Shown: positions 58,643-61,229 of the stretch, piece after piece
How the letters are laid out: each line of letters starts with the position of its first letter
Numbering within the stretch: the first letter of the stretch is position 1
NCBI RefSeq assembly: GCF_044324875.1
Contig: NZ_CP172185.1
From: Escherichia coli
GTDB lineage: Bacteria > Pseudomonadota > Gammaproteobacteria > Enterobacterales > Enterobacteriaceae
Length of the DNA stretch: 64,000 nt
Direction: 5' to 3' (one strand)
Made by a program: the position numbers and the translations under genes
The notes under the pieces: model-generated
Database searches by the model: none
What the model saw: only the letters and a program-made list of their open reading frames with translations
Told to the model about the DNA's origin: nothing

Positions 58643-59098
58643 TTATTCAACACCTGAATCCCCCGCCGCTTCTCTCCCCTTTATAAAACGCCCCTTCCGG
58701 AATCCAGACCGCTGCAGTGCACGACGAAGATGACCGTATACCGTCTTGTCATTCTGCCCCGTCTCTTCTGTAATCTCCGCAATACTTAAACCTCTGTAAT
58801 ACCGGTTCAGTACCGCTCTGCGCTCTTCCAGCGTCAACACACCTCCGGCCGCTCTCAGATTCAGCATCGACTTATTCAGAATACAGCAGGCCTCTCCGGT
58901 AAAAAGAATACGAACAATATCTGTATACTCATCATCACAGAATACAAAATAATATCTGAATGACCTGCCTGACTGCACCCTTCTTCTGTCTGATATGGCA
59001 TCTTCTATATATCTGATTCGACTGCTTACGGTTCCAAATATCTCTCGCAGGGCTTTTTCAAAATAAATATCTCTCGTCGCCAGGATTATATCCAGCAT
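58643..59098 (-). CDS. Small regulator with C-terminal sigma-70 region-4/LuxR-like HTH
   Basis: 151 aa; LTLEERRAVLNRYYRGLSIAEITEETGQNDKTVYGHLRRALQ; directly upstream of adhesin gene. Confidence 0.45.
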   Translation of the reverse strand: MLDIILATRDIYFEKALREIFGTVSSRIRYIEDAISDRRRVQSGRSFRYYFVFCDDEYTDIVRILFTGEACCILNKSMLNLRAAGGVLTLEERRAVLNRYYRGLSIAEITEETGQNDKTVYGHLRRALQRSGFRKGRFIKGREAAGDSGVE

Positions 59099-59159
59099 CT
59101 CTGTACCTCATTATATCCCGGGGGACTCCCCCCGGGACAGATATCTAAATCCTGACCTG

Positions 59160-60419
59160 TCAGAACTCAAAATTCACACCAGCATTCCACGATGCGGATG
59201 ACCCACCTGCAGCAACTGCAACTTTTCCTGCCACATTCTCTGTGAAACGGTAGCCCACGCCCACCGCAATGGCCTGCTCATCACGGTAACCACCAACGGC
59301 TGCTGTCGCGTTAAATTTTCCAACACTGTATGGCTGGAAAAGACCTGCCAGTGCCGCGCTCTGGGCTGCACTCTCCCTTAACTCCTTCCGGTTCTCTTTA
59401 ATCTGCTCCTGCATATTATTCATTCTCTCTGTCGCCATCTTCTGCCAGGCTTCCGTCAAATCCAGACGATGACTGTTATTCCTTATCGCTGCTGTATTTG
59501 AGGCTATTGCTGCATCCGTCTGCGCCCTGTTCTTCACAAGCACATCGCTGAGATGTTCTGCCTGGCTTTTCGCTTCTTTACGGGCATCCCGTACACTTTT
59601 ATCTGTATAAGCCCGGGAAACCTGAACTGTTTCATCCGCTTTTTCTTTTATTTCATCCTGAAGAGCAAGAGAAGATGCATCCGTATACGCCACCGCTGCC
59701 GATGTGCCTGCAATAATATCCCTGCTGAGTTCATCACGTACTGCTGTAACCTGACTGTCAGTATGAGCACGGGCATCTCTGTATACACCGCCTATCTCAC
59801 CGCGCAGACTGTCTCCCTCTGCCTTCAGTTCATCACGTACTGCTGTGACCTGACTGTCAGTATGAGAAACAGCATCACGGTAGACAGCTCCTATCTCACC
59901 GCGCAGGGCATCCCCCGACACCCGTACAGCACCTGCAATGGCGTTGTCCATCTGTCCTTTTGTGGCCGCATCACTATCCTTAACACCATCTGAAACATTT
60001 ATAATCCGGCGGGTTTCCGGTGCACCATCAACTGAAAATCCATATCCTGAAGGACCGGCCCCTACAGAAAGTACATTGCTTTCTCCATTCACCTGAGAGC
60101 CATACCCCAGAGCGACACTGTTGTCTGCATTAAAAACAGCTGTCTTATTTCCTGTTGCCATGGATTTATCCGCATCCCAAATTATTGCATCGGAACCAAC
60201 AGCAAAGTTTTTTCCAGTAACACTACCACCATCGTTAGCATTTCCATTTCTGTCAATCACACTTGCACTTTCAAGTGACTGAGTGCCATTATCAATCCAG
60301 ATAATACCCGCCGTTGAATCAGTAATTGTTTTATGAGCCAAAGCCTGAGATGAGAGCAGCAGGGCCACACTCACTGCCAGCGCGCTTTTCTTTAAAAAAG
60401 CATCACGTCTTTTAAGCAT
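59160..60419 (-). CDS. Trimeric autotransporter adhesin (YadA/Eib-like)
   Basis: ORF 59160..60473; signal peptide [28 protein letters not shown]; coiled-coil stalk with 33-aa tandem repeat; YadA-like anchor ending ...[12 protein letters not shown]. Confidence 0.8.
59731..59928. repeat. 99-bp tandem direct repeat (2 copies) inside adhesin stalk
   Basis: TCATCACGTACTGCTGT(A/G)ACCTGACTGTCAGTATGAG... repeated at 99-bp spacing; encodes ...[14 protein letters not shown]... Confidence 0.7.
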
Positions 60420-61229
60420 TCTGTTATTCTCCTGTATTATTACTTCACCAGCCAGAACGGTAGTGCGGAGCAAAAATACAGTGATAAGAATCCTCTTTTA
60501 TTAATTTAATAATGCCAGGAATATTATTGTGTATAATATGCGACCTCAATTTAAGCAGCAGAAAACGACTGGCATTAAAATCCTTAAATTATAAACACAT
60601 ACAACTTTGTAAAGGTGGTTATAATAAACCTGATTACTTTAATGTCTGTATACCTGCACTGCTGATATCACAAAACAATAAAAATCCTGGGTAATATCTC
60701 TGATGATTGAATGAGAAATTCACGATGTCTGGTGAGAATTCTGTTCAAAACGAGGAATGCAGACGTACACGTGGCAGGTATGGACTTCCACCGATTTAAC
60801 TTTTTTCCTTCCTTGTATTTACACATCACACATTTTGCGCTACAAAAATTTCACGTGGCACGCACCACGTGATCCGTAGAAAAGCCTCTTGTTACGAATT
60901 TCGTAAACCGCACGTCTGTCTGGTCGTGCGGATTTTTTATCCGTCAACTTCACATGAAACCCGCCAGAGCACTGTTTCCGGATTCAGACATCAGGCATAT
61001 TATTATCCACGATGTCGTGAACAAGATCACACTTTTGCAATTCCTTTATTGATCGAAAGCAGTTAATCACGGAAATTAATTACCGGAGTGAAAGCATTTG
61101 CTATATAAACATTCCCAGAAGACATCTTCATGTTGAATATTATTCCCTTATTGACTAGCCCCTCTGACAGAATTTCAGAGGGGGTTTTTTATCAGTTTCA
61201 CCATCCAACCCTGTACGCCAGAATGGTTT

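Follow-up and report, generated by a model that had tools for sequence, protein, structure and literature searches.

The trimeric autotransporter adhesins (TAAs, type Vc) of Escherichia coli are represented in a 2025 review by the types UpaG, Eib and Saa, with a paper on EhaG/UpaG also in its reference list; Eib and Saa range in size from 392 to 535 aa (PMC12525524). The locus analysed here lies in a 64-kb window (the whole stretch of DNA under study) of an E. coli chromosome and comprises two genes on the minus strand, both within 58643-60473, which encode a TAA and a small, 151-aa protein with a helix-turn-helix (HTH) domain. The adhesin is a genuine, uncharacterised TAA, and a targeted literature search found no published name or description of it. 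Its stalk contains a 33-residue unit, encoded by a 99-bp repeat, that varies in number in the population, and its gene is tightly linked to that of the nearly orphan HTH protein. With moderate confidence, we read the two genes as one island-borne unit in which an adhesin with a variable stalk is coupled to an HTH regulator.

Among the described systems, YadA of Yersinia shares with the adhesin the C-terminal anchor, the neck motif, NSVAIG-type head repeats and a right-handed stalk with YxD motifs that is followed by a left-handed segment. However, the head is much shorter here (about four repeats), the gene lies on a chromosomal E. coli island, and the stalk unit has 33 residues, in contrast to the 15-residue repeat of YadA. 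As the NCBIfam model YadA_autotrans was matched with 67.8 bits (E 9e-19), far under its cutoff of 750, the protein is regarded as a relative of YadA and not as YadA itself.

Saa, an autoagglutinating adhesin, is likewise a small E. coli TAA whose gene varies in size with the number of direct repeats. These repeat units are located in the 3′ half, and their number is uncorrelated with binding (PMC4060028). Saa is plasmid-borne (pO113), whereas the gene described here is chromosomal; the repeat unit and passenger sequence probably also differ. Matches to the gene in complete E. coli genomes were found at 865 places, all chromosomal and none on a plasmid, and the assignment to Saa, which belongs to the pO113-type megaplasmid of Shiga toxin-producing E. 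coli negative for the locus of enterocyte effacement, was rejected.

The number of peptide repeats in Cha of a Haemophilus cryptic genospecies alters the surface exposure of the head, as cited in PMC9704523. By analogy with Cha, the number of tandem repeats in the passenger would change head exposure here as well, although the two proteins differ in species, unit sequence and unit length, and for Cha the effect on exposure has been shown experimentally. Periscope proteins have a monomeric stalk of independently folding, highly identical tandem domains, while the repeat of this adhesin is part of the coiled-coil of a trimer, and this class was also rejected. Their definition expressly excludes TAAs while noting the analogy (PMC9704523), and the function proposed for the variable stalk would be analogous only.

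Eib proteins are E. coli TAAs of similar size, with a right-handed and then a left-handed stalk. Some database entries name the adhesin accordingly: NCBI and UniRef use the label 'immunoglobulin-binding protein' for proteins that match it exactly or almost exactly, and the size of the adhesin across alleles, 386-515 aa, resembles the Eib/Saa range given above. No significant similarity to the solved segments of the EibD passenger was found, however, as a phmmer search against all PDB chains did not find the fragment 2XQH at E up to 10 and matched the construct 2XZR only with E 0.15. The label was apparently transferred through similarity of the shared anchor. Moreover, the gene is part of an island linked to tRNA-Phe that carries sugar-utilisation genes, and it is neither surrounded by phage genes nor in a prophage context. 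That the adhesin is an Eib-type immunoglobulin-binding protein is therefore improbable; membership in Eib was rejected as the solved EibD fragments were not matched, and the immunoglobulin binding suggested in the original prediction has no homology support.

Architecture of the adhesin and its 99-bp repeat

The open reading frame (ORF) called mechanically begins at TTG 60473 and has 437 codons, while the RefSeq start, mapped from the 99.9%-identical strain 104, is the ATG at 60419, with AGGAG 11 nt before it. The RefSeq start and the spacing of AGGAG make the ATG the most likely start, and the protein, named 'YadA-like family protein' in RefSeq, was taken as 419 aa, not 437. TAAs are characterised by a C-terminal anchor domain of about 70-100 aa with four strands per monomer. 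The Pfam model of this domain, YadA_anchor (PF03895), is matched over its full length at residues 379-437 of the 437-aa ORF (E 2.8e-16), and the nuclear magnetic resonance structure of the YadA anchor, 2lme, matches with E 1.6e-17. Judged from its sequence, the gene encodes a TAA with signal peptide, head, neck, stalk and anchor, arranged as follows (all on the minus strand):

59160..60419: trimeric autotransporter adhesin gene, 419 aa plus stop (ORF, RefSeq start in strain 104, AGGAG, PF03895, 2lme)
60336..60419: signal peptide, aa 1-28 (read by eye: basic N-region, hydrophobic core, A-x-A cleavage motif)
60009..60335: short head, aa 29-137, with four YadA-like repeats of the NSVAIG-S type (pattern read from the sequence against the daTAA description, PMC2373917)
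59931..60008: neck/connector, aa 138-163 (Pfam YadA_stalk PF05662, E 0.0021, residues 156-181 of the 437-aa ORF)
59523..59930: right-handed coiled-coil stalk segment with YxD motifs, aa 164-299 (periodicity and motifs)
59817..59915: 99-bp repeat unit 1, aa 169-201 (tandem-repeat analyses)
59718..59816: 99-bp repeat unit 2, aa 202-234 (tandem-repeat analyses; the unit number is 1, 2 or 3 elsewhere)
59340..59522: heptad (left-handed) stalk segment, aa 300-360 (periodicity 3.52)
59163..59339: YadA-type membrane anchor, aa 361-419 (PF03895 and 2lme alignment)

The matches to Pfam YadA_head are weak (E 0.08 and 0.23). In a Fourier analysis of hydrophobicity, the stalk at aa 166-300 had a periodicity of 3.72-3.78 residues per turn and hardly any power at 3.5, and aa 300-362 showed a periodicity of 3.52 residues per turn. 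The YxD motifs are at residues 180, 213, 245 and 271. According to daTAA, right-handed stalks carry YxD, have a periodicity of 3.7-3.83, occur only between the last neck and the anchor and are followed by left-handed heptads (PMC2373917), and the layout of the stalk agrees with these rules. The anchor, neck motif, head repeats and coiled-coil periodicities thus bear out the assignment to the TAAs made in the original prediction.

Tandem Repeats Finder reported an array of period 99 at 59728-59906, with 1.8 copies, 87% matches, 0% indels and a score of 288, and a separate repeat search found two 80-nt copies of 88% identity offset by exactly 99 nt. With its exact spacing and lack of indels, the predicted tandem repeat of two 33-aa units in perfect register is real. 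Its description as near-identical is too strong for the allele of the window, as units 1 and 2 are identical at 77 of 99 nt and 26 of 33 aa, with the longest exact runs of 20, 19 and 17 nt; adjacent units in other alleles are identical at 84-93 of 99 nt.

The periodicity and YxD motifs place aa 166-300, and hence the 33-residue unit, in the right-handed stalk. The length of 33 residues suggests nine turns at 3.67 residues per turn, so gain or loss of a unit should preserve the register of the core and alter length only. In the mechanism that we propose, misalignment between the 99-bp units would add or remove whole units, resulting in 1, 2 or 3 per strain, and each change would keep the coiled-coil register and alter only the projection of the head, which we infer to shift by about 5 nm with each unit, given a helical rise of about 1.5 Å for one residue.

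Variation of the stalk and head among strains

The spans of the best 60 complete-genome matches fall into classes 99 bp apart: a matched span of 1314 or 1320 bp was found in 51 records, 1215 or 1221 bp, together with one of 1251 bp, in 7 records, and 1413 or 1419 bp in 2 records. Eleven other strains contributed twelve more copies of the locus for translation, TUM9803 being represented twice. One unit is present in the alleles of 14EC020, FY10, GF43, VTB96933v and TUM9803 locus 2, two units, besides the window, in those of BEN2908, NRZ14408, 2020N21-246 and TUM9803 locus 1, and three units in those of PK8261, CM2 and EC17CM7.

Three pairs of alleles show no differences over the 513-519 nt before and the 576 nt after the repeat, and yet are unequal in unit number: the window (2 units) and 14EC020 (1 unit), BEN2908 (2 units) and FY10 (1 unit), and PK8261 (3 units) and TUM9803 locus 2 (1 unit). 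As the flanks are identical within each pair, the changes in unit number are recent and recurrent, with at least three independent events in three allele backgrounds. In 14EC020, the only unit matches unit 1 of the window exactly through the 20-nt block ACAGCAGTACGTGATGAACT and then continues as the tail of unit 2, precisely and in frame. This junction fits misalignment within an identical block, since the crossover falls inside the 20-nt run.

Short-read assemblers can collapse or expand tandem repeats, in which case the differences in unit number would be assembly artefacts and not a true polymorphism. This is extremely improbable here. At no more than 300 bp, and with units distinguishable at several positions, the array is spanned by reads; every assembly in the collection is of the 'complete genome' level; the same length classes occur in many independent assemblies and lineages; and the deletion junction is precise and in frame. 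In the public protein collection, moreover, a 419-aa form was found on 507 contigs, a 421-aa form on 763, a second 419-aa allele on 412 and a 452-aa form on at least 1000 contigs, and two-unit and three-unit proteins are both abundant in public data. We consider the identity of the adhesin and the variation of its stalk length highly likely. The comparison of repeat number across isolates, proposed beforehand as a check, thus found 1, 2 or 3 units in complete genomes and not an invariant number, and together with the identical-flank pairs it supports the 99-bp units as the source of length variation.

Larger rearrangements of the stalk were also observed. A 555-aa protein (P0131) has four units through a larger internal duplication, which comprises two 33-residue units and the following AYTD segment, and a higher-order duplication is present on top of the 99-bp repeat in avian pathogenic E. 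coli (APEC) E19035 (H234, 954429-955410).

Outside the repeat, the final 576 nt are nearly constant, with 0-2 differences between any of the alleles over the heptad stalk and anchor, and variation is greatest in the head. Among the alleles with a short head, 17-24 of 513 nt are different, and proteins of 513-515 aa result where one of two longer, unrelated head types is present. The VTB96933v allele has a different stalk segment beyond the first half-unit, and SMS-3-5 is similar, with a partial match. The allele of the window looks recombinant, because its unit 1 shares its first half with the VTB96933v-type allele. Some genomes carry multiple copies, at up to 7-8 places, some of them with different heads. 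A further repeat was found at the predicted cleavage site:

60336..60347 (minus strand): CAGGCT/TTGGCT hexanucleotide tract encoding QA-LA, variable among strains

The CAGGCT tract has from about 1 to 7 copies among strains, encoding QALAHK, QALAQAHK, QAQAQAHK and, in GF43, (QA)7; the variation was seen at loci L004, L006, L007, L008 and L015. It is a second in-frame length polymorphism, which would alter the mature N-terminus or the efficiency of cleavage. The adhesin thus varies in three layers, i.e., swapping of head alleles, one to three stalk units and the hexanucleotide tract. The locus is thus a small, naturally occurring system in which an influence of stalk length on adhesion or on immune exposure could be studied, and the 99-bp steps are usable as a typing marker. 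Variation of the stalk is expected by specialists in the TAA family; the small regulator family is less expected, and its role is putative.

The small HTH gene and its linkage to the adhesin

Whereas an upstream position was given in the original prediction, the small gene is downstream (3′) on the coding strand and separated from the adhesin stop codon by 61 nt, in the following arrangement (minus strand):

59099..59159: 61-nt intergenic spacer with a GC-rich hairpin and a GAGG ribosome-binding site (fold, scan, conservation)
59116-59137: perfect GC-rich hairpin TCCCGGGGG-GAGT-CCCCCGGGA, 11 bp in the fold (RNA fold)
58643..59098: gene of the 151-aa small HTH protein (Sigma70_r4_2; RefSeq WP_000884153.1)
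58709..58840: HTH domain of the small protein, aa 87-130 (Pfam, family profile, model)

Among 5426 complete E. coli genomes, the HTH gene with the spacer was found in 183, always at 99% identity or more and in 182 of them with at least 80% query coverage; the conserved 3′ 576 nt of the adhesin were likewise found in 183, the two sets agreeing in number. About 3% of the complete genomes therefore carry the adhesin, including avian-pathogenic strains (BEN2908, APEC O78 and O2:K1) and human isolates from blood, wound and ascites. In 10 of the 12 additional loci, nothing but this 61-nt spacer separates the two genes.

The spacer is identical in nine of ten sequences (the window and nine loci), and the tenth has one substitution in the loop. 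The spacer region folds with -33.7 kcal/mol (z -3.1), and its hairpin is unique in the window. As no T-run follows, the hairpin was not called a terminator by the scan, and no promoter was called in the spacer. GAGG is found 8 nt ahead of the ATG of the small gene. With neither a terminator nor a promoter called and no T-run after the hairpin, co-transcription is the most economical reading, and the two genes are probably co-transcribed. In the proposed mechanism the HTH gene would be transcribed with the adhesin through this non-terminating GC hairpin, which may be an element of mRNA stability or attenuation, and the cytoplasmic 151-aa protein would be a transcription regulator coupled to adhesin expression.

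RefSeq names WP_000884153.1 a 'sigma factor-like helix-turn-helix DNA-binding protein'. Pfam Sigma70_r4_2 matches residues 87-130 (E 4e-7), and the other matches are to generic HTH families. The region-4-like HTH is a feature shared with extracytoplasmic function (ECF) sigma factors, the source of the RefSeq name. Unlike these, the small protein lacks region 2, as Pfam found no Sigma70_r2 up to E 10, and its N-terminal half is predicted to be alpha/beta and not all-helical. The NCBIfam ECF models scored 16-21 bits at residues 67-130, with cutoffs of 43-222. Since region 2 is absent, the protein is not a sigma factor, and a sigma-70/ECF sigma factor was ruled out.

Sigma70_r4_2-type and GerE-type HTH domains belong to one superfamily. 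The Pfam scan of the small protein alone gave Sigma70_r4_2 and no match to GerE. A profile built from three sequences of the family matched GerE (1fse, E 8e-5) in the PDB, and also a response-regulator HTH domain, sigma-4 domains and VraR/NarL. With the same profile, a small family of proteins with 132-189 aa was retrieved, some of which carry Pfam GerE PF00196. The sigma-region-4-like HTH noted in the original prediction is therefore present, with family profiles fitting LuxR/GerE at least equally well.

The AlphaFold model from the single sequence was uninformative (pLDDT 37). The model from a nine-sequence alignment (pLDDT 65.5) has four beta-alpha units followed by a three-helix HTH with helices at 90-101, 106-113 and 117-131. 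Its full-length Foldseek matches are RcsB, FixJ, EvgA, StyR and DesR (E ~1e-3, probability 0.8-0.99, low TM-scores), while sigma-4 domains match the C-terminal part; the identity to any known regulator among these matches is at most 16%. In the alignment, all members of the small family have an Asp at D55, which the model places at the end of predicted strand 3. The modelled protein resembles NarL/FixJ regulators and their short relatives (RcsB, EvgA) in a putative C-terminal tetrahelical HTH of the GerE/sigma-4 type and in its N-terminal alternating beta-alpha domain. It differs from them in its length of 151 aa and its four predicted beta-alpha units: Pfam found no Response_reg, the model shows neither the fifth strand nor the conserved Lys of a receiver domain, and no kinase gene adjoins the HTH gene, so a full NarL/FixJ response regulator, which would have a complete receiver with phospho-acceptor Asp, conserved Thr/Ser and Lys and a partner kinase, was rejected. 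With moderate confidence, the model points to a truncated, degenerate receiver-like domain joined to an HTH of the LuxR/GerE and sigma-4 type.

A word-indexed search of 5.8 billion clusters gave one partial entry from Salmonella and otherwise only E. coli proteins nearly identical to the query. A tblastn search against plasmids found weak, full-length and colinear relatives on E. coli IncF plasmids; among these, WP_046201729.1 (160 aa, E. coli plasmid) aligned in a pairwise BLASTP with 41 bits and E 5e-10 over 146 residues of both halves. The tblastn search for phage relatives gave nothing below E 3, and in PHROG there was one weak match to the N-terminal half (phrog_6585, E 3e-4), a family without an assigned function.

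The genes of the distant relatives (about 22% identity) on E. coli IncF plasmids and other contigs (L018 2630-6012; L020 1-4870; L021 2-3203; L017 2875-5564) lie about 120 nt downstream of a large gene without assigned function (689 to >1241 aa). One of the large proteins is lipase-like, with RTX-type Gly-rich repeats seen by eye, and Pfam gave nothing significant on one large upstream protein. A second GerE-type regulator gene follows the relatives, although it was not seen at L017, and a PapB-like regulator gene is on the opposite strand in two of three contexts (L018, L020). An autotransporter gene follows the PapB-like gene on plasmid M8-A (L018). The relatives keep the two-domain layout and the position directly downstream of a large gene.

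From its linkage and layout, we tentatively propose that the small protein is a regulator coupled to the adhesin, which would bind DNA through its HTH; the control of adhesin expression suggested in the original prediction is plausible in this light. Several observations weigh against this proposal and against a role for the variable stalk. Pairing is not obligatory for retention of the adhesin ORF, as IS421 replaces the start of the HTH gene in FY10, where the adhesin is intact, and an element of insertion sequence (IS) type IS3 lies between the two genes in 2020N21-246. An exhaustive HMMER search of 1.84 billion representatives found only the protein's own fragments and four matches of about 3e-4 to the HTH alone. 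The structural model is only moderately confident, with Foldseek E-values and TM-scores as modest as given above. A perfect TATAAT just after the hairpin, without an acceptable -35, makes a separate weak promoter for the HTH gene conceivable. Finally, stalk length may have little functional effect, given the lack of correlation of repeat number with binding in Saa (PMC4060028).

In a second reading, the HTH gene is a linked passenger, i.e., a lineage-restricted ORF on the same island fragment, possibly decaying and functionally unconnected to the adhesin. Besides the IS-disrupted or IS-separated HTH gene in strains with the adhesin and the near absence of homologues outside E. coli, all five variant sites of the HTH gene in the window and nine loci are non-synonymous, with no sign of purifying selection, which also counts against a coupled regulator. 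This pattern is compatible with relaxed constraint, although with five sites and such low diversity dN/dS is without power and the sample is far too small to conclude. Moreover, identity is 99% or more in all genomes for both the 3′ half of the adhesin and the HTH gene, and the two could thus occur together because a single DNA segment was inherited from a recent common ancestor. On the other hand, the ORF is intact in all ten sequences compared and covered to at least 80% in 182 of 183 genomes, a plausible ribosome-binding site precedes it, its product contains an identifiable HTH, and the distant relatives of this protein share the two-domain layout and the place directly downstream of a large gene. 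We regard the passenger reading as rather doubtful, but as one to be taken seriously.

Fimbrial operons encode regulators at their 3′ end that act on other loci, such as PapX in E. coli and MrpJ in Proteus. By analogy, the HTH protein might be made with the adhesin and act elsewhere, e.g., by repressing motility or other adhesins. No terminator separates the HTH gene from the adhesin gene, after which it is located at the 3′ end of the unit, and the fold relatives RcsB and EvgA are global regulators, RcsB binding the flhDC promoter according to PDB titles. However, there is no sequence homology to PapX or MrpJ and a target site was not identified, and action on other loci is considered unlikely, though likewise to be taken seriously. 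A bolder form of the coupled reading, to which we give as little weight, is a self-contained adhesin-regulator cassette carried as cargo of a tRNA-linked island, in which the co-transcribed regulator would either hold its own AT-rich promoter in the ON state by positive feedback or, whenever the adhesin is made, redirect the expression of other loci, e.g., of motility genes. The positive feedback would result in bistable, phase-like expression. If true, this would be the first regulator of such a type tied to a type Vc adhesin, and its relatives would form a new small family of truncated receiver-HTH proteins beside genes of large uncharacterised proteins in E. coli accessory DNA. The small HTH protein is a testable candidate regulator, and the practical gain is modest overall. 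The labels 'sigma factor-like' and the older 'immunoglobulin-binding protein' are both probably misleading.

Two very hydrophobic mini-ORFs were observed just 3′ of the HTH gene (minus strand, 58576-58653 and 58436-58531). The first has 25 aa (MLNNVSYIVISVLLLLFFVVFVTNG) and overlaps the stop of the HTH gene, and the second has 31 aa (MKITKAAFIFALSVWSVAVICLLLFVLVVLG). Both could encode small membrane peptides or could have arisen by chance in T-rich sequence. The database entry P0002 (220 aa) represents an HTH ORF that continues into the mini-ORF region.

Genomic setting of the locus

The 4.1-kb stretch around the two genes matches the chromosome of E. coli strain 104, many poultry and human isolates and one dog isolate at 99.9% identity. 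On one side, the order of genes is a MurR/RpiR regulator, a phosphotransferase system (PTS) transporter, a NanE-like epimerase and an MliC-type lysozyme inhibitor, followed by the two genes described here. On the other side there are an IS fragment, a split transketolase gene, ascorbate-type PTS genes, a LacI regulator, a frameshifted ProQ/FinO gene and pgt genes. The surrounding region is interspersed with IS elements, and the locus is a mosaic, IS-rich genomic island and not core chromosome. A tRNA-Phe gene at 12082-12157, the sole tRNA gene of the window and about 47 kb from the adhesin unit, is the likely integration site of the island that bears the adhesin. In the closest complete genome, ugpB-like, fec and pgt genes are found near tRNA-Phe. 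The split transketolase gene next to the locus brought the APEC tkt1 pathogenicity island into consideration, which was rejected, since that island is located between metE and ysgA and no such adhesin is mentioned (PMC3349570).

The GC content falls to 38-44% around the 5′ end of the adhesin gene and in the region upstream, where two further features were noted (minus strand):

60621..60648: candidate sigma-70-like promoter CAGACA-16-TATTAT, 9/12 matches, about 200 nt upstream of the adhesin start (consensus scan)
60851..60872: terminator-like hairpin and T-run, 9-bp stem, tail AATTTTTGTA, upstream of the adhesin promoter region (terminator scan)

The promoter scan found 2 sites with 6.7 expected, so the candidate is not above chance. 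The terminator-like hairpin, if functional, would insulate the unit from upstream transcription. An invertible promoter switch was rejected, as no convincing pair of inverted repeats was found around the promoter region. An Rfam scan of 58200-61700 gave nothing below E 0.2. About 860 nt upstream of the adhesin start, a frameshifted transposase fragment (61270-61460 of the window, minus strand; locus L001 11783-11958) was observed in every locus examined. As it sits at the far end of the AT-rich non-coding stretch in each of them, this stretch, which also contains the terminator-like hairpin, belongs to the module as a constant component.

A 32-nt inverted repeat, 81% complementary (58322-58353 and 61588-61619), brackets the adhesin-HTH module, with 3234 nt between the arms. 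The arms overlap hairpins at the 3′ ends of the flanking mliC-like and transketolase genes. A chimeric query joining both flanks of the module found an empty site in none of 366 genomes; there is thus no sign of excision or insertion of the module, and a mobile cassette bounded by the inverted repeat was rejected.

Strain TUM9803 has two islands (L015, L016), each with an adhesin-HTH pair, the adhesin being a long-head allele of 515 aa in one and a one-unit allele of 386 aa in the other. The two islands share their left context, which consists of an inovirus Gp2-family gene, an HTH gene, a UCP030791 gene, a ProQ/FinO pseudogene, IS1 and a transketolase fragment. About 190 complete genomes match only the first 132-138 nt of the adhesin query. 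In HB-Coli0 and WCHEC96200 (L013 and L014, both 3555-6877), the adhesin is a 188-aa 'hypothetical protein' ORF followed by sul2, aph(3'')-Ib and aph(6)-Id. Since the sul2-aph genes directly follow this ORF, the rest of the adhesin-HTH unit was apparently replaced by a resistance module in these two strains.

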